Source of the DNA: an uncultured Dehalococcoidia bacterium
GTDB taxonomy: Bacteria; Chloroflexota; Dehalococcoidia; SZUA-161; CAYRBX01
NCBI GenBank assembly: GCA_964422695.1
Contig: CAYRBX010000001.1
Span: 1 to 30,265 of the forward strand
Direction of reading: 5' to 3'
Length of the DNA: 30,265 nucleotides
Shown here: positions 7,027 to 22,793 of the stretch, piece by piece
Layout of the letters: each line of letters opens with the position of its first letter
Position numbering within the stretch: position 1 is the stretch's first letter
Made by a program: the position numbers and the translations under genes
Notes under the pieces: generated by a model
The model's database searches: none
Told to the model about the DNA's origin: nothing
Seen by the model: only the letters and a program-made list of their open reading frames with translations

Positions 7027-9582
7027 ATGAACTTCAAGAAGGAGGAGCAGAAGCTCTACTCCCGCATAGTGAGGGCCATCTTCGAGACGGCGGAGACCAT
7101 GGGGATCGCCGAGAGGGAGGCTCTGGAGCAGCTCTCCAGGCAGGTGATAGAGCGCCTCCGCCGCCGCCCCCTTCCCGGGCTGGAGGAATTCGTTCCGGAA
7201 GCCAAGATCTTCCGTTTCTCCGATGCGGAGATCGAGCACATCGCGAAGGAGGTGATCTCGGAGGAGCTGAAGAGGAAAAAGCCCTCCCGGCGCATAACCC
7301 TCGTCTCCCCCGAGATCCCGTCCGAGGAGGAGATAAAGCTCACCCCCACCGCCAAAGCGGTTTTGGAGAGGAGGTATTTGAAGAAAGACGAGAAGGGGAG
7401 GGTGATCGAAACCCCCAAGGAATTGTTCCAGAGGGTGGCGCGTCATATCGCTTCGGCCGAGAGGATTTACGATCCCGACGCCGATGTCGAGAAGTGGGAG
7501 AGGGAGTTCTTCCGCCTCATGGCCAACTTGGAGTTCCTTCCCAACTCCCCCACCTTGATGAACGCCGGAAGGGAGCTCGGGCAGCTCTCCGCCTGCTTCG
7601 TCATCCCCATCGAGGATTCGATGGATTCCATCTTCGATGCCGTCAAATACACGGCTCTCATTCACAAGAGCGGCGGGGGAACCGGCTTCTCCTTCTCGAG
7701 GCTCCGGCCGGAATCCGATAGGGTGGGCTCCACCGGGGGGGTCGCGAGCGGCCCCGTATCCTTCATGAGGGTTTTCGACACGGCGACCGATGTGATCAAA
7801 CAGGGGGGGATGAGGCGGGGCGCCAATATGGCCATCCTCCGGGTGGATCACCCCGATATCCTGAAGTTCATAACGGCGAAGGAGGATCCCAGAGCTTTCA
7901 CGAATTTCAACCTCTCGGTGGCCGTTCCCGATGAGTTCATGGAGAAGGTCGAGAGAGGGGAGGATTACGATCTCATAAATCCTCGAACAGGGGAGGCGGT
8001 GGGGAGGCTAAATGCGAAAGAGGTCTTCGATAAGATCGTCGAAATGGCTTGGAAGACGGGAGATCCCGGCCTCGTTTTCATAGATCGAATAAACCGGGAT
8101 AATCCCACCCCTCACCTCGGACAAATAGAATCCACAAATCCCTGCGGGGAGCAGCCCCTGCTTCCCTTCGAATCATGCAATCTGGGCTCGATAAACCTCT
8201 CCAAGATGCTCAAAGAGGAAAACGGAAGATTTGTGATCGATTGGGAGAAATTGAGAAAGACGGTGTGGGTGGCCGTCAGATTTCTCGATAATGTGATCGA
8301 TGTCAACAAATATCCTCTCCCTCAAATCGAGGAAATGACCAAGAAGACGAGGAAAATAGGTCTCGGAGTTATGGGCTTCGCCGATATGCTCATCAAAATG
8401 GGAGTTCCTTATGATTCCGAGGAAGCTCTTCGGATCGCAGAGGAGGTAATGGAATTCATCGACACCGAAGCGCTAAAGGCCTCAGAATCTCTGGCAGAAG
8501 AGAGGGGAGTATTTCCGGCTTTCAAGGGGAGCATTTACGATCGGCCGGGCGGTCCCAAGGTGAGAAATGCCACAAGAACCACAATCGCCCCCACAGGAAC
8601 GCTGAGCATTATCGCAGGATGCTCTTCCGGAATAGAGCCTTTATTCGCCATAGCTTTCGTTCGTCACATCCTCGAGGGGGAGCATTTCATAGAGGTGAAT
8701 CCCCTGTTCGAGGAGATCGCCAAGAAAGAGGGATTCTGGAGCGAGGAGCTCATGAAGAAAGTCGCCGAAAAGGGGAGCATTCAGGATATGGAGGAAATCC
8801 CACCTCATATAAGAAGGCTTTTCGTCACGGCTCATGATATAGCTCCCGAATGGCATGTTCGAATGCAGGCGGCCTTTCAGAAACACACCAACAACGCCGT
8901 ATCCAAAACCGTAAACCTCCCTCATCACGCCACGAAGGAGGATGTCGCCAGGGTATTCTTCCAAGCTTTCAGAGAGGGATGTAAGGGGATTACGGTCTTT
9001 CGAGATCGATGCAGGGAGGATCAGGTTCTGAGCGTGGGGCTCAAGGGGAAGGAGGAGAGGGCCGCTCCGGCGGAGGAGAAGCTCGTTCCCCGTCCCAGAC
9101 CTCGGACGACTCGAGGGGTGACGGAGAGGGTGACGACGGGATGCGGCAACCTCTACGTCACCGTCAATTTCGACGACAAGGGGCCGTGCGAGGTCTTCTC
9201 CAGTTTGGGGAAGGCGGGAGGGTGCGCCTCGGCTCAGCTTGAGGCCATGTGCCGCCTTATCTCCCTGGCCCTGCGGGCCGGAGTGGATGCGAAGGCCATA
9301 GTGAAGCACCTGAGGGGCATTCGCTGTCCTTCCATCGCTTGGGATGAAGGCCAGGCCGTTCTCTCCTGCGCCGATGCCATAGGAATGGTGCTTCAGAAAT
9401 ACACCCAATCTCAAACCCTCCCCCTCTCGGAAAAGCCCTCGCGAAATCAAAATCAGGAAGCGGAGATCGAAGAGGCCTTTCAGGGGAATCTCGCCGGACA
9501 ATGCCCCGATTGCGGGAGCATTCTCGTCTATCAGGAGGGTTGCTTCATCTGCCATAGCTGCGGCTACACCAAGTGCGGATGA
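7027..9582 (+). CDS. nrdJ: Class II (adenosylcobalamin-dependent) ribonucleotide reductase with TSCPD/Zn-ribbon C-terminus
   Basis: FLPNSPTLMNAG, LSACFV, GGGTGFSFS, RRGANM, STNPCGEQPL, CNLGSINL, TIAPTGT, VSKTVN, C-terminal CPDCG..QEGCFICHSCGYTKCG. No intein seen. Confidence 0.96.
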   Translation: MNFKKEEQKLYSRIVRAIFETAETMGIAEREALEQLSRQVIERLRRRPLPGLEEFVPEAKIFRFSDAEIEHIAKEVISEELKRKKPSRRITLVSPEIPSEEEIKLTPTAKAVLERRYLKKDEKGRVIETPKELFQRVARHIASAERIYDPDADVEKWEREFFRLMANLEFLPNSPTLMNAGRELGQLSACFVIPIEDSMDSIFDAVKYTALIHKSGGGTGFSFSRLRPESDRVGSTGGVASGPVSFMRVFDTATDVIKQGGMRRGANMAILRVDHPDILKFITAKEDPRAFTNFNLSVAVPDEFMEKVERGEDYDLINPRTGEAVGRLNAKEVFDKIVEMAWKTGDPGLVFIDRINRDNPTPHLGQIESTNPCGEQPLLPFESCNLGSINLSKMLKEENGRFVIDWEKLRKTVWVAVRFLDNVIDVNKYPLPQIEEMTKKTRKIGLGVMGFADMLIKMGVPYDSEEALRIAEEVMEFIDTEALKASESLAEERGVFPAFKGSIYDRPGGPKVRNATRTTIAPTGTLSIIAGCSSGIEPLFAIAFVRHILEGEHFIEVNPLFEEIAKKEGFWSEELMKKVAEKGSIQDMEEIPPHIRRLFVTAHDIAPEWHVRMQAAFQKHTNNAVSKTVNLPHHATKEDVARVFFQAFREGCKGITVFRDRCREDQVLSVGLKGKEERAAPAEEKLVPRPRPRTTRGVTERVTTGCGNLYVTVNFDDKGPCEVFSSLGKAGGCASAQLEAMCRLISLALRAGVDAKAIVKHLRGIRCPSIAWDEGQAVLSCADAIGMVLQKYTQSQTLPLSEKPSRNQNQEAEIEEAFQGNLAGQCPDCGSILVYQEGCFICHSCGYTKCG

Positions 9583-12230: not shown

Positions 12231-13373
12231 TCAAAAAGCTCCGAAGGTGAGCTTCTCTTTTATCCTCCATATCTTCTCCAAGAGCATCGCGCCGGCGAAG
12301 AAGGGAGAAGCATTTCTTCCCTCAAGGATAAGGCGAATGGAGAGCCGAAGGAGGGAAATGAGCAGCGATCTTTGAGGCTCTTTCACTTTTATCGCTTCTT
12401 TCCATCTCTCGCACCATTTGCAGAGGAAGCAATCGAAAGCGCATTTTCCCCTCTTGAAGAATTCGAGAAATCCCGCAAGCTTTCGAGCATCTAAGCTTAA
12501 AGCCGCGGCGAGGCCGTCAAAACTCCCCCAAGAGGGAGGAGAGCTCAAGATCTCCGCGAAATTGGGAGGGGATCTTCGCTCGGAATAAGCTCTGAGCGCT
12601 TTGAGAATTCTCGAAGTTGAAAATTCCCTTCCCGAGATCTTGAAATTCTCTATTCCGATTTTCTCGTATTCATGAAGATCTTCGGGGCGAATCCAAGGAG
12701 AGCGCAAAAGCCAGATAGGATCTTTGAGCTTTTCGAGAGCGCAGCGAAGATGAGAGAAGCCGCCCAGAAGGCGATGAGCATCTCTGACCGAATGAGAGGA
12801 GGAGGCGTAATCGGAGAGCCGAAATGGGCATGAGGGAAGGCAGGCATCGTTCACTATAACTTCAAGCTCGCATCTCGCCGCGCGAGCGAGCTTCTTCAAG
12901 GTCTGAAAATCGCGATTTCGCATAAAATCTATCGTCACGATATCGGCTCCGAGCTCCTCCCAGAATCTCAAAGCATTCGGCGTGTTCACGCAAGCTACGG
13001 TTGAGATCTTCACTTTGAGGGGGAAGCGCTTTTTTGCGATCTCACACAGCAGAGGATGAGAGACGATCACGTAATCCGCTTTGATTTCGGAAAGCCATTT
13101 GAGATGATCGAAGATCCCCTCCAATCCTTCCTCCGTATACTCTCGATTTCCGAGGCAAGGCCCTCCCATGGCGTAAGCGAATTCGAAGCCGGCTTTATGA
13201 GCTCTCTCCACAAATTCCGCCGCCTTCTCCTTTTCTATCTCCGGGATGATGCCCGAAGGTCTTCCCCCGCCCACGGGATCTCGGCGAAGGCTTCCGAAGA
13301 ACCCCCTCACCGGCCTTCCGAGAGAGGCCTCTATGAGCTCCTCCTTCCAATTGGCGGGAACCCAGAGCATCAC
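12231..13373 (-). CDS. U32-family Fe-S protein (UbiU/TrhP/RlhA superfamily), subfamily unassigned
   Basis: VGGGR, EFVERAHKAG.EF.Y..GGPCLGN, ADYVIVS.P, VKISTVA.VNT, EVIVNDACLPSCPFR, LRC, WIRPEDL, FKISGR; extra C-terminal CAFDCFLCKWC. Confidence 0.88.
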   Translation of the reverse strand: MMLWVPANWKEELIEASLGRPVRGFFGSLRRDPVGGGRPSGIIPEIEKEKAAEFVERAHKAGFEFAYAMGGPCLGNREYTEEGLEGIFDHLKWLSEIKADYVIVSHPLLCEIAKKRFPLKVKISTVACVNTPNALRFWEELGADIVTIDFMRNRDFQTLKKLARAARCELEVIVNDACLPSCPFRLSDYASSSHSVRDAHRLLGGFSHLRCALEKLKDPIWLLRSPWIRPEDLHEYEKIGIENFKISGREFSTSRILKALRAYSERRSPPNFAEILSSPPSWGSFDGLAAALSLDARKLAGFLEFFKRGKCAFDCFLCKWCERWKEAIKVKEPQRSLLISLLRLSIRLILEGRNASPFFAGAMLLEKIWRIKEKLTFGAF

Positions 13374-14122
13374 AATTGAAGGGGGATGGAGCGCTTCTTG
13401 AGATTCTCAAGGACGAAAGGATAAGGTTCGAGGTATTCGACTTCGATCTCCTCGGGGGAGATGCCCTCGGACTTGAGCTTCCTTGCGAGCATCTCAATTC
13501 CCGAAGCTCCGAAGGTCTCGAGCATCACGGCGGGCCAGGCGTTCACCCCGGCGGCGAGGAGCGCTTTCAAAGCTCTTATCGGAAATTCGAAGAACCTCCC
13601 GCAAGCCCCCGAGATCTTCTCGAAGCTCCGCTCATCCCATCCCTTTACGGAAATTCGAACGAAAAGCCTTCTGAATCGGGAGAGCTCATCGGCGAAATCC
13701 GGATGAGCCCCCAGAATAAAGCCGTTCGTCTCGAGAATGAAATCAAGAAACGGGTTTTCGGCGGAGATCACCTCGATGACCTTCAGGATATGCTCGAAGG
13801 ACTTCCTCCCCAAAATGGGCTCAGCTCCGCTCAATCTCACCTTGTTGAATCCCCGCTTCCCGCAGATGGCGAGAAGCCTTCTCGCAACCTCCTCCGGAGG
13901 GCAGAATTCGCCTCCGCACTCATCGGGCCTGAGGTTCCTCTCGTAATTCCAGCAGTAAGCGCACAGGAAGCAGCAGCCCACCATATCGGCGGTGGCGATC
14001 CCCCCGTAATACCTCGCCCCCCGGAACCTGTAATACTTCCTCCTCCCCCCTTTCATGACGATCTCCTCAACCTCCTCTGCGCGTTTGAGAGGATCGAAGG
14101 GGAATTCAAGCTCGCTCCTCAC
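13370..14122 (-). CDS. Radical SAM protein, archaeal-type (COG5014-like)
   Basis: RKYYRFRGARYYGGIATADMVGCCFLCAYCWN (CxxxCxxC), VRLSGAEP, FILETNG, VRISVKG. Confidence 0.88.
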   Translation of the reverse strand: MRSELEFPFDPLKRAEEVEEIVMKGGRRKYYRFRGARYYGGIATADMVGCCFLCAYCWNYERNLRPDECGGEFCPPEEVARRLLAICGKRGFNKVRLSGAEPILGRKSFEHILKVIEVISAENPFLDFILETNGFILGAHPDFADELSRFRRLFVRISVKGWDERSFEKISGACGRFFEFPIRALKALLAAGVNAWPAVMLETFGASGIEMLARKLKSEGISPEEIEVEYLEPYPFVLENLKKRSIPLQL

Positions 14123-14978
14123 AGATCTCCCTCAGCCCGCACTCCCCGCATCTCCTCCTCCGACAGTATAGCTTCTCCAAGATATAAGAGGCCGTTTGCA
14201 TCCAGCCGGCGAGCCGCCCGAACGCCTTTCTTGCGAGAAACGAAAGGCATTCCTCCCTCCCGGGGCAATGCGAACAGGGGAAGGATCTACAGAGCTTCGG
14301 ATCCCACGGCTTCTCCCAGGAGAGCATTCCGAGCTTCCTCATCGCCCTCTGAAAGTGAACGTCGGAGGGAGCGAAGAAAGTGGCATCCTTTCGGGAGAAG
14401 AGCAGATACGAAGTCGCGATCTTCGGACCTATACGAGGCCCCTGCAGGAGCTTCAAGCGAAGCTCCTCAGGGGTCAGGGAATCCTCCACGGGCTTGATCT
14501 CCCGAAGGTAGAAGGAGAGCTGCTCGGGGAGGTTTTTGAGCTGAAAGCTCCTTCCGGGAAGCTCCCGAAGATCCCCCTCCGAGATCCTCTTCACCCATCT
14601 CACCGTATTGGCGTGAAAATCGGTGTTCGCGGACAAAGCGACCGAGATGAAGATGAGCTCTCGATCGTAAGGATTCACCGCAAGCCCGAGATCTCCGAAT
14701 CTCTCAACAAGAAGGAGGGCTTTCTCCCTCACCTCCTCGGAGAGCTCCTCCAGATGCTCGAAGGGATCAAACCAAGCTCCCGAGAGGATAAAAGCCACAT
14801 TCGGATCCGGGCAATTCTCCACTTCAAGCGCGTCCTGACCTCTGCTCCTCATTCTGAGCTCCCGAAATGCGCCTCTTCTCTTCACCCACCATTCTCCCTC
14901 TTTCTCGAAGAGCGGAAGGGAGAAGGAGGAGAAGAGCGAAAGCTCGAGATCGAAATTCCTCCTTATCTCCAAAAGCAT
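14106..14978 (-). CDS. HhH-GPD superfamily (DNA glycosylase-like) protein with two Cys4 motifs
   Basis: HhH LLQGPRIGPKIATSYLLF with Lys; FFAPSDVHFQR with Asp; CRSFPCSHCPGREEC and YCRRRRCGECGLREIC. Confidence 0.75.
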   Translation of the reverse strand: MLLEIRRNFDLELSLFSSFSLPLFEKEGEWWVKRRGAFRELRMRSRGQDALEVENCPDPNVAFILSGAWFDPFEHLEELSEEVREKALLLVERFGDLGLAVNPYDRELIFISVALSANTDFHANTVRWVKRISEGDLRELPGRSFQLKNLPEQLSFYLREIKPVEDSLTPEELRLKLLQGPRIGPKIATSYLLFSRKDATFFAPSDVHFQRAMRKLGMLSWEKPWDPKLCRSFPCSHCPGREECLSFLARKAFGRLAGWMQTASYILEKLYCRRRRCGECGLREICEERA

Positions 14979-15008
14979 TTCTTAATAAAATATCGCGGGA
15001 GGGAGGAG

Positions 15009-15401
15009 ATGAAGGTCGTAAGGAGAGAAGAGGTTTCGGCTTTCACGACGAAAGACGGATCTGAAATAAGAGAGCTTCTCGCCCCGAGGAATTCGGAGCT
15101 CAGAAATCTGAGCCTCGCCGAGGCGAGAGTTGAGCCGGGAGGAGAGACCGCGGAGCATTTTCACAAATCCTCGGATGAGATTTATTACATCCTCGAAGGA
15201 GAGGGGATCATGAGGATTGAAGGAGAAGAGCGGAAAGTGAGGCCGGGAGATGCGATCGCCATTCCCGCGGGAAGAAAGCATAAGATCAAAAACGATGGAG
15301 ATCGAGATCTCATCTTCCTCTGTTTCTGCGCTCCTTCTTACACTCACGAAGATACGATTATCACCGCTCCTCAGGGAAGGAGTTCGCAGCGAAGCTCGTA
15401 A
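15009..15401 (+). CDS. Cupin-domain protein
   Basis: TTKDGSEIRELL, SLAEARV, HFHKSSDEIYYILEGEG, IPAGRKHKIKN; SD GGAGGAG before ATG 15009. This is the real gene inside ORF-track 14196..15401. Confidence 0.9.
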   Translation: MKVVRREEVSAFTTKDGSEIRELLAPRNSELRNLSLAEARVEPGGETAEHFHKSSDEIYYILEGEGIMRIEGEERKVRPGDAIAIPAGRKHKIKNDGDRDLIFLCFCAPSYTHEDTIITAPQGRSSQRSS

Positions 15402-16471
15402 AGAAGTTGCGCCACCCCCTCCGGATCCCTTCTCAAAAAGAAGCGAGAGCATTCGAATTGTATTGCGACATCGAGGAATCCCTGCTCCACCTTCTCATGA
15501 AGCTTGAGGAGCTCTGAGGTTTTCCTTCCGGAGAAATGAAAGTTCATGGTGATCACCCTGATATCTCTGCTCTTCTCCAGTTCAAAGAGGGCTTTTCTTA
15601 TCTCCTCCCGCGTGTAATTCTCCACTTCAATTCCGTATAATCCCAATCCTTTTACGAGCGCTTGAATATCAAATCTCTCCCTGCTTGTGGGAGGTAAGGA
15701 GGAGGGATCGAGATCTTCTCTTTCCGGAGCAATCCACTCGAGAAATCTCAGAGCTCTTTTCGCGAAATCCCTTTTGTATTCCTCCGCTAAGGATTTAAAT
15801 CTCCGCCGGAATTTCATCTCCGCTCTCCTTACGATATCGAAGAAATCCTCAAGCGGCAGAAGGCCGAAATCTCCTATATCGACGACGGCTCCCAGAAGTC
15901 CGGTGCTGTGAATCGAAATCATAATCCTCTTGTGAGGTTTGAATTCATCTTTCCAAGCGCAGAGAGCCGCCAGTCCTCCCGTCCAAGAATCCATTTCCGC
16001 TTGAGGGAAGGGGATGTATTCATCGGGCTCTCGACGAACCTTCCCGCAATGAGGAGCGACGTAAATGGTTTTCGGCTCCTCTCCGAAGATGAAAGAGTAA
16101 AAGCGCTCGTAAATCCCCCTCTTGAGCTCATATTCCTGAGGATCTCTTGCCGGAAAAGCGTAAGTTCCTGTCCATCGACGATCGAGAAGAGCTTCGGGAA
16201 GGGCCTCATGATATTCCTGAGCTTCCTTGAGGGAGGGGAGAGCTCGATGGAAATCTATGCCGTATTTCCCCTCTTCGGGCTTATCATCTTGAGGCAATCT
16301 CGAAGCTGTGGAGAGGATGAGCCTTACTCCCTTTTTGCTCTCGAAGACCTCAAAACAGGGGTTTTGCTCCAAGATGCGGAATCTCTCCAGAAGCGCCGAT
16401 CTGGGGCCGAGATAAGCTCCATCCTCATCCTCCCGAACCAATTCCGGAATCTTCCCCCTTTTCGGGCTCAT
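15371..16471 (-). CDS. Hypothetical protein, probable N-formylglutamate amidohydrolase-like (Zn-exopeptidase fold)
   Basis: IYVAPHCG ... EMDSWTGGLA ... MISIHS ... VAIQFECSR match the order of the PHxG / D / HS / QxE motifs of FGase-like hydrolases; SD AGGAG overlaps the echF stop. Confidence 0.55.
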   Translation of the reverse strand: MSPKRGKIPELVREDEDGAYLGPRSALLERFRILEQNPCFEVFESKKGVRLILSTASRLPQDDKPEEGKYGIDFHRALPSLKEAQEYHEALPEALLDRRWTGTYAFPARDPQEYELKRGIYERFYSFIFGEEPKTIYVAPHCGKVRREPDEYIPFPQAEMDSWTGGLAALCAWKDEFKPHKRIMISIHSTGLLGAVVDIGDFGLLPLEDFFDIVRRAEMKFRRRFKSLAEEYKRDFAKRALRFLEWIAPEREDLDPSSLPPTSRERFDIQALVKGLGLYGIEVENYTREEIRKALFELEKSRDIRVITMNFHFSGRKTSELLKLHEKVEQGFLDVAIQFECSRFFLRRDPEGVAQLLYELRCELLP

Positions 16472-16480
16472 GAGAGGGGA

Positions 16481-16822
16481 TCAGCTCCTTCGAGGAGGAA
16501 CGTGCGTTTCGACTTTCTTCTCGTAATCGGGGGGATGGTAATGAGTATCCATGGTGATGGCTCCCGGAAGGCAGAATTCCACGCAAGTTCGGCAGTAAAT
16601 GCACTTGAAGGGATCGTAAGTGAGGCGCTTCCTCTCCGTATCGACTTCAATAGCTCCGGAAGGGCAAACCCGAGCGCAATCTCCGCAGAAATCGCAGCGC
16701 TCCGAATGGAAGATGAGCTTCCCCCGGGTCGCCGGAAACGGCTCTCTCTTCACGAACGGATAGCGTCTCGTAACAGGTCCTCTTAAGAGATTTCTGAATA
16801 AGGTCGGCAGCATCCAAGGCAT
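16481..16822 (-). CDS. echF: EchF/NuoI-like 2x[4Fe-4S] subunit
   Basis: GPVTRRYP, RGKL, CDFCGDCARVCP, CIYCRTCVEFC; ATG 16822 with SD AGGAGG. Confidence 0.88.
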   Translation of the reverse strand: MPWMLPTLFRNLLRGPVTRRYPFVKREPFPATRGKLIFHSERCDFCGDCARVCPSGAIEVDTERKRLTYDPFKCIYCRTCVEFCLPGAITMDTHYHPPDYEKKVETHVPPRRS

Positions 16823-16836
16823 CTTCTTCCTCCTCC

Positions 16837-17928
16837 TTACCTTTCTGTGCAGGCGATGCACGGATCGATGGAGAGGGTTATGACGGGAACGTCGGCGAGC
16901 TCGCATCCCGGAAGCATTACAAGCAGGGGCGGGATATTGGCGAAAGTGGGGGTTCTCACCTTCAATCTCTCAAGGTAGGGAGTTCCGTTCCCCTTGGCGT
17001 ACTCGAAGAGCTCTCCTCGAGGCTGCTCCACTCGCATGATGGCCTCTCCTTCCGGACATCCCTCCACCCGAACCATTATCTCCCTATCGTCCATCTTATC
17101 GATTCTGTCCAGAGCGGGGATTACGAGATCGAAGATGGATTGGTAGATCTCCCTTATTCGCACCAGAGTGCGGGCGTAGCTGTCGCAACCGTATTCCACC
17201 ACAGGCTCGAAGCCGAGCTCCCCGTAAGCCGCATAACCGGTCATTCGTGTATCCCAAGCCCACCCGCTTCCTCTGAGCGTGGGCCCCACCGCCCCCATCC
17301 TCCACGCATCCTCTTTGGGGAGAATCCCCTTCTCCACGGTTCTCGCCTTGATCGTGTAATCCCGGAGGAACAGATCCCTTATGGGATCCATGAGCTTCCT
17401 GAAGTCCTGCTCGAGCATTCGGCGCACGGCCTTGGACATCTCCCTGTCGATATCCCTTCTCACCCCTCCTATAACGCATGTGGATTGAATCACCCTCTGG
17501 CCGGAGGTCATCTCGAGGACATCCAAGATGATCTCCCTGATCCGCCAGATCTGCATGAAGGCGCTCTCGAAGCCGAGGGCGTCGGCGAGAAGCCCGAGCC
17601 ACAGGAGATGGCTGTGGGTTCTTGAAAGCTCGCTCCAGATAACGCGAAGGTATTTGGCGCGAGGAGGAACCTCAACACCCATCATCGTCTCTATGAGCTG
17701 GCAGTAGCAGAGAGCGTGAATGAAGCTGCAAATCCCGCATATGCGCTCGCAGAGGAAGACGTTCTGACGGAATCTATTCCTCTCAGCTCCCTTCTCGATT
17801 CCCCGATGAATGTATCCTATGATGGGAGTTACATTCACGACTTTCTCATCCTCGCACTCCAATTTCAGCTGGATGGGCTCGGGAAAGACCGGATGCTGCG
17901 GCCCGAAAGGCACTATAGTCCTTGCCAT
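16837..17928 (-). CDS. echE: Group 4 [NiFe]-hydrogenase large subunit, Ech type
   Basis: PFGPQHP, GYIHRGIEK, L1 ERICGICS, EQPRGE, RTPT, L2 DPCIACTER-stop; all four Ni-ligating Cys present and no cleavable C-terminal extension. ATG 17928 with SD GGAGGAG. Confidence 0.93.
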   Translation of the reverse strand: MARTIVPFGPQHPVFPEPIQLKLECEDEKVVNVTPIIGYIHRGIEKGAERNRFRQNVFLCERICGICSFIHALCYCQLIETMMGVEVPPRAKYLRVIWSELSRTHSHLLWLGLLADALGFESAFMQIWRIREIILDVLEMTSGQRVIQSTCVIGGVRRDIDREMSKAVRRMLEQDFRKLMDPIRDLFLRDYTIKARTVEKGILPKEDAWRMGAVGPTLRGSGWAWDTRMTGYAAYGELGFEPVVEYGCDSYARTLVRIREIYQSIFDLVIPALDRIDKMDDREIMVRVEGCPEGEAIMRVEQPRGELFEYAKGNGTPYLERLKVRTPTFANIPPLLVMLPGCELADVPVITLSIDPCIACTER

Positions 17929-19932: not shown

Positions 19933-21857
19933 GCCTCTGCCCTCTCCCTTCGTATGATCCTCTCCTCCTCAGGAGGCGGAGGAGGAACCGGCTCTCCGGA
20001 GAGCTTTTTGACCGCGGCGAATCTCGGAGGACATACCTCCATACAAGTTCCGCACTTTATGCATTTCTCCTGAATGATGACGTGTACCTTGTTCTTCCCC
20101 CCGTCTATCGCTCCCGCCGGGCAGGCGCGCAGGCAGATCATGCAGGCCTGACATCTCTCCGGATCTATCCAGTAATTTACAAGAGCTTTGCATACTCCGG
20201 CGGGACATCTTCGATCTCTTATATGAGCTTCGTATTCGTCCCTGAAGTACCTCAATGTGGAGAGGATGGGATTGGCCGCGGTCCTTCCCAGAGCGCAGAG
20301 AGAGGCTTCGGAGAGAACCTCGCCGATCTCCTCAAGGAGCAGGATATCCTCCTCCGAGCCCTCTCCGGATCTTATCCTCTCCAGAATGCGAAGGGATTGC
20401 CTTATCCCCTCGCGACAGGGAACGCATTTCCCGCAGGATTCGCTCGCCAGGAAGTTGAGGAAGTACCAGGCGACATCCACCATGCACGTATCCTCATCCA
20501 TCACGATCATCCCTCCGGAGCCCATCATGGAGCCGAGCTTCGTGAGCTCATCGAAATCCACCGGCGTGTCCAAGTACTGCTCGGGAATCACCCCGCCGGA
20601 GGGGCCTCCGGTCTGAACGGCTTTGAATTTCTTCCCGTCTTTGATCCCCCCTCCGATCTTGTAGATGATATCCCTCAGGGTGATCCCCATGGGGACTTCG
20701 ATGAGGCCCGTGTTGTTCACCTTCCCCACGAGGGAGAAGATCTTGGTTCCGGGGCTCCCTTTGGTTCCGATGGAAGTGAACCAATCCGCCCCCCTGTTGA
20801 TGATCAAAGGAACGTTCGCCCACGTCTCCACATTATTGAGATTGGAGGGCTTCCCCCAAATCCCGCTTATGGAAGTTCGAATGTACTTGGGGCGGGGCTC
20901 CCCCACCTTCCCCTCTATCGCCGTCATGAGAGCGCTCGACTCCCCGGAGACGAAAGCGCCCGCCCCCCGATGCACCGTGACCTTGAAGCTGAATCCGGAT
21001 CCCAAGATGTTCTCGCCCAGAAGGCCGTATTCTTCGGCCTGTCGGATCGCCGTGAGCACGTTCTCCACGGCCAGAGGGTACTCCTGGCGGACGTAAATGA
21101 AGCCCTCATGAGCTCCTATGGCGTAAGCTCCGATGATAAGCCCTTCGAGCACCGAATGAGGATTTCCCTCCATCAAAGCTCTGTCCATGAAGGCCCCGGG
21201 GTCTCCCTCATCGCAATTGACGATCACATATTTGGGGGTTCCCGGAGCGTTGCGAGTCGTCTCCCACTTCCTTCCCGCGGGGAATCCGGCGCCGCCCCTC
21301 CCGCGCAGGTTGGCTTTCTTCACCTCCTCCAAGACCTGCTCCGGGGTCATATCGAATAGAGCTTTCGCCAGAGCCGAATACCCTCCCAGAGCTATGTAGT
21401 CCTCGATGTTCTTGGGATCGATCTTGGAGTTGTTGGCCAGAAGCAATCGCTGCTGGTGCTTGTAGAAGGGGATTTCGGACTCGTAAGCTATCCTCTCTCC
21501 TGTTTCCGGATCCTGATAGAGGAGGCGCTCCGCGATCTCCCCTCTTACAAGCGTTTTCTCCACGATCTCCGGAACATCTTCGGGCCGGACTTGCACGTAA
21601 TGAATTCCCTGAGGGTAGATGATGACGATCGTCCCCTTCTCGCAGAATCCCGGGCAGCCGGTCTCCTTTATATCCACCTTCCCCTCAAGGCCGCGCTTGG
21701 CGATCTCCTCCCGGAAGGCCTTGATCACATCTCTCGCTCCGAGCGCAAGACACCCCGTTCCGGCGCAAATCGCCGCGCAGGGCCTGTTGGGATCCCTCCG
21801 GCTTTGTATCTCCCTCCTGTAGTTCTCCAGATCCTCCCTCGAACTCAATCTCGGCAT
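19929..21857 (-). CDS. nuoF: NuoF/HydB-like FMN and NAD(P)H-binding subunit, long form
   Basis: N-terminal CAGTGC..GCPGFC; LRGRGGAGFP; NCDEGDPGAFMDR; GAGAFVSGESSAL; NNVET; GGPSGG; ESCGKCVPCREG..LCALG; DTC..HIRDRRCPAGVC; C-terminal CQACMICLRACP and CIKCGTCMEVCP. Confidence 0.95.
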   Translation of the reverse strand: MPRLSSREDLENYRREIQSRRDPNRPCAAICAGTGCLALGARDVIKAFREEIAKRGLEGKVDIKETGCPGFCEKGTIVIIYPQGIHYVQVRPEDVPEIVEKTLVRGEIAERLLYQDPETGERIAYESEIPFYKHQQRLLLANNSKIDPKNIEDYIALGGYSALAKALFDMTPEQVLEEVKKANLRGRGGAGFPAGRKWETTRNAPGTPKYVIVNCDEGDPGAFMDRALMEGNPHSVLEGLIIGAYAIGAHEGFIYVRQEYPLAVENVLTAIRQAEEYGLLGENILGSGFSFKVTVHRGAGAFVSGESSALMTAIEGKVGEPRPKYIRTSISGIWGKPSNLNNVETWANVPLIINRGADWFTSIGTKGSPGTKIFSLVGKVNNTGLIEVPMGITLRDIIYKIGGGIKDGKKFKAVQTGGPSGGVIPEQYLDTPVDFDELTKLGSMMGSGGMIVMDEDTCMVDVAWYFLNFLASESCGKCVPCREGIRQSLRILERIRSGEGSEEDILLLEEIGEVLSEASLCALGRTAANPILSTLRYFRDEYEAHIRDRRCPAGVCKALVNYWIDPERCQACMICLRACPAGAIDGGKNKVHVIIQEKCIKCGTCMEVCPPRFAAVKKLSGEPVPPPPPEEERIIRRERAEA

Positions 21858-21861
21858 CCCC

Positions 21862-22326
21862 CTACTCCTCCTCGTAACGTTTCAAGATCTCCTCCACTTT
21901 GGATACGGTCATCCCTCCATAATACGTCCCGTCGACGACCATAACGGGCCCCAGAGCGCAGCAGCCGAGGCAGTTTACGGTTTCGAGAGAGAAGCGCAGA
22001 TCGGAGCGCGTCTCCCCGGCTTTTATCCCGAGCACCTGCTCGACCCTCTCCAAGATCCTCGGAGATCCCCTCACATGACAGGCCGTTCCCATGCATACGG
22101 TGACGTGATGCTTCCCTTTGGGAACCAAGCTGAAGGCCTTGTAGAAGGTGGCGATGTGGTAAATTCGGGAGAGGGGGACTTTGAGCCTCTCGCTTATCCT
22201 CTTCAGGGCCTCCCGGGGAAGCCAGTTGAACTCCCTCTGAACCTCAAGGAGGATCTGGATGAGAGCGCTGGGATCGGCCTTGTAAGCGTCGATAATCCGA
22301 TCTACCTGCTCCAGCTCCGCGGTCAT
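21862..22326 (-). CDS. nuoE: NuoE/HydC-like [2Fe-2S] subunit
   Basis: LIQILLEVQ, ATFY, VCMGTACHVRG, VNCLGCCALGP. Confidence 0.95.
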   Translation of the reverse strand: MTAELEQVDRIIDAYKADPSALIQILLEVQREFNWLPREALKRISERLKVPLSRIYHIATFYKAFSLVPKGKHHVTVCMGTACHVRGSPRILERVEQVLGIKAGETRSDLRFSLETVNCLGCCALGPVMVVDGTYYGGMTVSKVEEILKRYEEE

Positions 22327-22369
22327 CGCCGCTCGACCTCCCTCCGAAGAGTTGAAAAAGCCCTCATAA

Positions 22370-22399
22370 AGTATTTCCGCAAGCGAGCGCCGCAGTCAA
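22370..22399 (-). promoter_or_regulatory. Putative promoter of the nuoE...echF operon
   Basis: Minus strand TTGACT (22399-22394), 18-nt spacer, AATACT (22375-22370). Confidence 0.45.
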
Positions 22400-22401
22400 T
22401 T

Positions 22402-22430
22402 TTGAAATTTCCCCTCCGGAGATCTACAAT
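22402..22430 (+). promoter_or_regulatory. Sigma70-type promoter of rsfS, predicted leaderless transcript
   Basis: TTGAAA (22402-22407), 17-nt spacer, TACAAT (22425-22430); ATG at 22437. Confidence 0.72.
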
Positions 22431-22436
22431 GAACTG

Positions 22437-22793
22437 ATGTCGAGGGATAAGAGGGCTTTGGAGATCGCCCGCCGCGCCGCGAACGCGGCTCAGGAGAAGC
22501 AGGCTTCGGATATCTTCCTCCTCGATCTCTCGGGAACTTGCCCCTTTGCGGATTTCTTCCTCATCTGCACCGGAGATAACAAGCGCCATATGGAGGCCAT
22601 AAGGGAGGAGATAGAGCGAGCTCTTCTGGAGGAGGGCGTCCGCCTCCTGAGAGACGAGGGGGAGGGGGATTCGGGCTGGATCCTCATGGATTTCGGAGAT
22701 CTCATCGTTCATATCTTCTCCCCCGAGCAGCGCTCCTTCTATCGGCTGGAGGAGCTGTGGAGCAATGCCTCCCCCGTTCTGAGGATCTTATGA
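22437..22793 (+). CDS. rsfS: Ribosome silencing factor RsfS (Iojap/YbeB)
   Basis: [52 protein letters not shown]. Confidence 0.96.

Follow-up and report, generated by a model that had tools for sequence, protein, structure and literature searches.

A BfuB subunit of a Dehalococcoidia Ech-Bfu hydrogenase complex with a nucleotide pocket that may favour NADP(H)

The Ech-Bfu locus

The window, i.e. the whole stretch of 30,265 nucleotides analysed here, stems from an uncultured Dehalococcoidia bacterium (GCA_964422695.1), and the hydrogenase genes within it are limited to bfuCBA, a fusion gene and echEF (Table 1). The product of bfuB is the FMN- and nicotinamide-nucleotide-binding subunit of a complex in which a BfuABC electron-bifurcating module is coupled to an Ech-type membrane [NiFe]-hydrogenase, an arrangement of the Dehalococcoidia 'Mbh-Bfu' type. 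Pfam assigns the domains PF01512 (Nuo51 FMN), PF10531 (SLBB) and PF10589 (NuoF [4Fe-4S]) to the protein, as well as an additional N-terminal thioredoxin-like [2Fe-2S] domain of the PF01257 type (a weak match, residues 28-101) and a C-terminal 2x[4Fe-4S] ferredoxin domain, recognized by two Fer4 motifs at residues 563-610. This is the domain composition of BfuB/HydB-type proteins, and the accompanying genes bfuC (NuoE-like) and bfuA (N-terminal NuoG-like) adjoin bfuB; the C-B-A trio is kept in nearly all of 80 related loci. The top PDB relatives are B subunits of electron-bifurcating Bfu/HydABC enzymes, with full-length matches to Acetomicrobium mobile NiFe-HydB (7t2r_B, E 6e-252), Thermoanaerobacter kivui HydB (8a6t_B, E 2.8e-231) and A. 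mobile WorB (9mqx_B). Further solved relatives are A. woodii HydB, NfnB and StnB.

The large subunit belongs to the group 4 [NiFe]-hydrogenases and carries both nickel-binding Cys motifs. The genes echA-echB-echC of the same genome lie on a separate contig (C50; L088:3382-6626, plus strand), where they are followed by a metallo-beta-lactamase-fold gene and not by bfuC. All nine subunits of an Mbh/Ech-Bfu complex, including the extra flavin-binding subunit, are present when the window and contig C50 are taken together, although their genes do not form one cluster here. In three complete Dehalococcoides genomes of 1.36-1.52 Mb, among them D. mccartyi 195, echABC-bfuCBA-fusion-echEF constitute a single operon. 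An 'Mbh-Bfu' with an unexplained extra flavin subunit was predicted in D. mccartyi 195 by Schut et al. 2022, who assumed NAD(H) for all Bfu enzymes (PMC9304861).

The GltD-like part of the fusion protein is missing the NAD(P)H Rossmann domain, only ~45 residues being left between FDAIILALGA and GVFAAGD. BfuB is therefore the sole nicotinamide site of the complex. An Nfn-like arrangement, with the GltD-like fusion as the NADPH site and an NAD-specific BfuB, was rejected since the Rossmann domain is deleted. Longer versions of the fusion (~600 aa) occur in other Dehalococcoidia (G135, G054, G061), within ech operons that contain no bfu genes.

A 366-aa ORF (15371-16471, minus strand) begins 10 nt behind echF. 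Pfam recognizes no domain in it, and no equivalent gene follows the Dehalococcoides operons. The ORF is succeeded on the same strand by the ORFs 14982-15452 and 14106-14978, likewise without Pfam matches, and by a radical-SAM gene (13370-14122). Between ndk and the bfu genes, a 129-aa ORF (22323-22712, minus strand) without Pfam match shares a 4-nt overlap with the start of bfuC. An 851-aa ribonucleotide reductase with a C-terminal TSCPD domain is encoded at 7027-9582 on the plus strand of the window.

Table 1. Hydrogenase genes of the window and pocket positions of BfuB
Feature	Coordinates	Strand	Basis and remarks
BfuC, NuoE/HydC-like [2Fe-2S], 154 aa	21862..22326	-	PF01257, E 4.8e-54
BfuB/HydB-type NuoF homologue, 642 aa	19929..21857	-	ORF translation, Pfam, PDB matches
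Short BfuA, N-terminal NuoG/HoxU-like, [2Fe-2S] + [4Fe-4S], 194 aa	19348..19932	-	PF13510, Fer4_7, Fer4_Nqo3
NuoC/EchD-like + GltD-like 2x[4Fe-4S] + FAD fusion, 468 aa	17931..19337	-	Pfam; Dehalococcoides orthologues
EchE-type group 4 [NiFe]-hydrogenase large subunit, 365 aa	16837..17934	-	Pfam; nickel-binding motifs RICGICS (N-terminal) and DPCIACTER (C-terminal)
EchF/NuoI-like 2x[4Fe-4S] subunit	16481..16906	-	Pfam; true start probably ~28 codons downstream of the longest-ORF start
Thr200 codon (K197+3 in GRKWET)	21258..21260	-	Glu in many His-type relatives, Gly/Thr in Arg types, Phe in canonical types
Glycine-rich nucleotide loop G298-AGAFVSGESSAL-310	20928..20966	-	S304 for canonical Cys, S307 for E. 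coli E183, S308 for Thr
Ser304 codon	20946-20948	-	Canonical YxCGEET Cys; Ser throughout the SGESS subclade
Ser307 codon	20937..20939	-	Equivalent to E. coli NuoF Glu183, R. capsulatus FdsB Glu259 (PMC10671435), T. kivui HydB Ser320
K324-YIRTS-329	20871..20888	-	In place of the canonical [KR]PP[FY]PA block; alignment
Arg327 codon	20877..20879	-	Equivalent to E. coli Phe203, T. kivui HydB Arg340 (PMC10021017); by spacing FdsB Leu279 (PMC10671435)
Ile330 codon	20868..20870	-	Glu/Asp in many His-type relatives incl. A. mobile WorB; never acidic in Arg-type relatives of the clade

The nucleotide pocket of BfuB

The ORF translation of BfuB contains the motif blocks GAGAFVSGESSAL and KYIRTS, and the stretch starting at H296 reads H296-RGAGAFVSGESSALMTAIEGKVGEPRPKYIRTSISG. 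BLASTP aligns this block to E. coli K-12 NuoF (NC_000913.3 b2284) free of gaps, pairing C180 with S304, E182 with E306, E183 with S307, T184 with S308, K200 with K324 and F203 with R327. BfuB accordingly has Ser in place of the second Glu of GEET and Arg where KPPFPA has its aromatic residue; with GESS and KYIRTS, it does not match the canonical NAD-specific NuoF site (GEET plus [KR]PP[FY]P). The pocket state at positions 200/307/327 is T/S/R, and there is no carboxylate at 200 or 330. Position 200 presumably corresponds to Phe78 of T. thermophilus Nqo1, which we take to flank the adenine together with Phe205. Ser304, in place of the canonical Cys, is a third exchange; the motif given by the first-pass annotation includes it, without comment. 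Ser at this position is found in 143 of 195 sequences, with at least five changes on the tree.

The first-pass annotation had described GAGAFVSGESS and KYIRTS, with the Ser codon at 20937-20939 in place of the second Glu, and translation and alignment bear out both residues and coordinates. It had also stated that E183 of E. coli NuoF is the residue replaced and that its loss raises NADPH use, which agrees with the alignment and with the behavior of FdsB E259 variants and E. coli complex I (PMC10671435). Wild-type formate dehydrogenase of R. capsulatus has no NADP+ activity. The exchange of FdsB E259, at the E183 position, for G, Q, R or K created NADP+ activity and increased the KM for NAD+ up to 62-fold, L279R as well as K276A also created NADP+ activity, and the same effect of carboxylate removal is cited for E. 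coli complex I (PMC10671435). These single changes added NADP+ activity without a clean switch of specificity (PMC10671435). The spacing of FdsB residues 259/276/279 equals that of BfuB 307/324/327: a distance of 20 residues separates L279 from E259, R327 from S307 and F203 from E183. The equivalence of R327 and L279 is based on this spacing.

Among the solved relatives of BfuB, T. kivui HydB alone depends on NADP+. Its motif in the PDB alignment is CGEST...RPPRTN, with S320 equivalent to S307 and Arg340 to R327, and its pocket state is G/S/R. Both hallmarks of this pocket recur in BfuB, namely a small non-acidic residue at the E183 position (S307) and an Arg at the F203 position (R327). Arg340 is a named NADP+ contact in the NADP+-dependent HydABC (PMC10021017). 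The earlier suggestion that the Arg might bind the 2'-phosphate has gained in weight from this equivalence and from the spacing match to FdsB L279R. Given the Glu at the 330-equivalent position of T. kivui HydB, absence of a carboxylate is not a universal requirement.

Other relatives use NAD(H). The cryo-EM map of A. mobile WorB contains bound NAD(H), and NAD+ reduction has been reported (PMC12318220, PMC9304861). NADH also serves as the reductant of G. metallireducens BamGHI, a member of the same clade (bioRxiv 10.64898/2026.04.10.717634). The exchange of Glu for Ser by itself therefore does not make the site NADP-specific. GEET together with [KR]PP[FY]PA, i.e. the canonical form, is found in four solved NAD-binding BfuBs (S. 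ovata StnB 8oh5, NfnB 9n5u, 9bov and A. mobile NiFe-HydB 7t2r). HytB of C. autoethanogenum is NADP-specific and belongs to the same BfuB clade.

Pocket states across the Bfu family

The motif is neither a product of chance nor a sequencing error: SGESS is present in 116 of the 119 closest database homologues (73-86% identical), and all 116 have a second block of the form K-[YH]-[IV]-[HR]-T. Residue 327 is His in ~80% and Arg in ~17% of these SGESS homologues. SGESS/KY[IV][HR]T characterizes a large clade, and the Glu-to-Ser exchange alone proves nothing about the choice of nucleotide. Among 76 species-level genomic loci, every GEET protein had RPP[FY]P as its second block, and K[YH]x[HR] always accompanied GES[ST]. 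In 150 diverse representatives, 86 combined E307 with F/Y at 327 and 28 combined S/A/G/T at 307 with H/R. The raw counts for the pairing of E307 with an aromatic residue at 327 across the family are striking, with 87 and 33 versus 13 and 3. When descent is allowed for, the association is not significant (p 0.22, only 8 independent pairs) and we accordingly do not claim it as independent of descent.

Covariation with Arg versus His at 327 was analyzed in 175 GES-type sequences (132 with His327, 43 with Arg327). The column most informative on this choice is position 200 (0.34 of 0.80 bits). Of the 132 sequences with His327, 114 have an acidic residue at 200 or 330; of the 43 with Arg327, 2 do. 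In 10 phylogenetically independent pairs on supported branches, the acid occurred opposite to Arg in ~6.5 and along with Arg in 0 (median p 0.03). On the tree of the 175 sequences His and Arg were exchanged at least 15 times, versus ~39 in shuffles, which could mean that position 327 is near-neutral. Positions 200, 307 and 327 vary together in three states, F/E/F-Y, E/S/H and G-T/S/R, and the pocket comes in three forms: carboxylate plus aromatic, carboxylate plus His, and Arg without carboxylate. Of these forms, it is the Arg form that would be expected to admit a 2'-phosphate and keep it bound.

All three states also occur in one functional context, the Pfam-verified BamBCDEFGHI clusters, as KWEF/GEET/RPPYPA, KWEE/GESS/KYIHTA and KWEG/GEST/KYIRSN. 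[quoted passage not shown] In genomes of the same order, BfuB homologues are highly multi-copy: a single genome can have as many as 8 strong matches, and some homologues lie within ORFs of 1000-1200 aa, suggestive of fusions.

The genome studied here has a second BfuB paralogue, encoded on contig C48 (L089:6164-7471, minus strand), which is cut by the contig end and adjoins genes for a methylmalonyl-CoA mutase and an acyl-CoA dehydrogenase. Its motif is CGEST...RPPHSV with Glu at the 200-equivalent position, i.e. state E/S/H with His and carboxylate. Since the BfuB of the window has state T/S/R, both pocket states are present in one cell.

Discussion

From the observed residues, alignment, operon and covariation of the pocket we infer a nucleotide preference: a preference of BfuB for NADP(H) is plausible and the single most likely state, ahead of NAD(H) use and of a lack of discrimination, and we estimate its probability at roughly 0.5. 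The adenosine pocket is remodeled in that the carboxylate that binds the ribose in E. coli (E183) is replaced by Ser307 and the adenine-stacking aromatic residue (F203) by Arg327, with Thr200 as the third pocket residue and with no compensating carboxylate at either 200 or 330. A pocket of this kind would admit the 2'-phosphate, which could be bound via Arg327 as it is by Arg340 in T. kivui HydB. In that case, H2 oxidation by the complex would be coupled to the reduction of NADP+ (rather than, or over, NAD+) together with ferredoxin. Given the parallels of T. kivui Arg340 and FdsB L279R, Arg327 is more telling than Ser307. The first-pass annotation had gone further and proposed an NADP(H)-specific module. 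This stands as a reasonable prediction for the Arg subtype, but it is no conclusion that the sequence allows, as GESS and KYI-x-T are clade-wide and WorB and BamGHI use NAD(H). Its expectation that NAD-specific enzymes would not share the GESS/YIRT motif held in part: GESS does occur in the NAD-using WorB, but there it is combined with His and Glu330 and not with Arg in the absence of a carboxylate.

The clade-wide signature is also the starting point for a different view, in which the NAD(H) site of BfuB is an ordinary one. GESS/KYI[HR]T would then simply be inherited, Ser, Thr and His/Arg would take over the ribose and adenine contacts, and Arg327 would merely stack on the adenine like His or Phe. 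This would fit the 116 of 119 homologues with the signature, the binding of NAD(H) by the GESS/KYIH protein WorB of A. mobile (PMC12318220) and the reduction of BamGHI by NADH (bioRxiv 10.64898/2026.04.10.717634). The repeated exchange of His and Arg, at least 15 times, would fit as well, as would the presence of all three pocket states among Bam-type clusters, of which the one studied enzyme nonetheless uses NADH. However, the carboxylate that His types keep is systematically absent from Arg types, and the same two substitutions confer NADP+ activity in experiment (PMC10671435) and are natural in the NADP+-dependent enzyme of T. kivui (PMC10021017). We regard an ordinary NAD(H) site as less likely than a preference for NADP(H).

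Loss of the Glu could alternatively have relaxed the specificity, so that NADH and NADPH are both used and the partner is set by the sizes of the pools. Variants changed at E183 in E. coli or at E259 in FdsB acquire the use of NADPH and retain some NADH activity (PMC10671435), and the pocket of BfuB still contains Lys324 and the conserved GAGF loop. On the other hand, equilibration of both pools at one site of a bifurcating enzyme would short-circuit the NADH/NADPH disequilibrium, and T. kivui HydABC exhibited only weak NAD+ activity in extracts (PMC8578170). We consider a non-discriminating site the least likely of the three readings, and a preference for NADP(H) remains the reading that we favor.

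In regard to the physiology of NADPH, neither PntB nor G6PD nor an NfnAB-like pair was found in the 89.5%-complete genome of 1.04 Mb, a circumstantial argument for an NADP(H)-linked BfuB. A DHODB_Fe-S protein on contig C41 was considered as NfnA but rejected: its gene follows carB and precedes dnaX, which identifies it as PyrK. A putative NfnAB has been reported in Dehalococcoides (PMC5736913), so that such a need for NADPH is not general in that genus.

As a tentative extension, the Ech-Bfu complexes of Dehalococcoidia, including that of the cultured organohalide respirer D. mccartyi, could be membrane-coupled, H2-driven NADP+/ferredoxin reductases and a main NADPH source of these small-genome bacteria. 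The code of positions 200/307/327 (plus 330) might then predict NAD versus NADP across the Bfu family, and some class II benzoyl-CoA reductases (KWEG..GEST..KYIRSN) might run on NADPH. As a by-product, our analysis yields a three-position pocket code that can be tested. Bfu-family enzymes are currently all annotated and modeled as NADH-linked. If an Arg-type pocket stands for NADP(H), H2-derived electrons should be sent straight to NADPH and reduced ferredoxin for biosynthesis in metabolic models of Dehalococcoides and related bacteria, and the nucleotide partners of thousands of uncharacterized bifurcating complexes could be assigned by a simple sequence rule. Such pockets would furthermore be natural templates for engineers who switch the cofactor use of hydrogenases and formate dehydrogenases. 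Should the prediction be wrong, the result would still be useful, as loss of the 'specificity' Glu would then be compatible with NAD(H) use.

Comparison with known systems

The canonical proteins E. coli NuoF, T. thermophilus Nqo1 and R. capsulatus FdsB differ from BfuB in having Glu183 and Phe203 (Leu279 in FdsB) and in being devoid of both the N-terminal [2Fe-2S] and the C-terminal ferredoxin domain. The FMN/NADH fold of E. coli NuoF is nevertheless 41% identical to that of BfuB over 404 residues (BLASTP). A. mobile WorB (PDB 9MQX), part of the bifurcating tungsten aldehyde oxidoreductase WorABCSL, resembles BfuB in the GESS plus KYI-x signature and in the short BfuA partner, but has His at 327 and Glu at 330 (motif CGESS...KYIHATE, state S/S/H). 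T. kivui HydB (8A6T) shares with BfuB the domain architecture, a Ser where NuoF has E183, an Arg (Arg340) where it has F203, a Gly or Thr at position 200 (Gly in HydB) and the Thr after the Arg. In contrast to BfuB, it belongs to another clade, reads RPPRTN instead of KYIRTS, has Cys in place of Ser304 and Glu at the 330-equivalent, and works with an [FeFe]-hydrogenase rather than with an Ech-type [NiFe]-hydrogenase.

The closest known system is the Mbh-Bfu of D. mccartyi 195, which consists of the same nine proteins (EchA, EchB, EchC, BfuC, BfuB, BfuA, the NuoC::FAD fusion, EchE and EchF); both complexes are known from their genes. Its BfuB (AAW39862.1, exact protein identity; annotated as 'HymB, putative') is 68% identical to the BfuB described here and has an identical pocket (T200, SGESS, KYIRT, I330). 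T200/S307/R327/I330 are found in the same Ech-Bfu operon of the three Dehalococcoides genomes, despite an identity of only 68%. The complex described here is a further instance of an Mbh/Ech-Bfu complex with a pocket of the T. kivui-like NADP type, both of which were already known.
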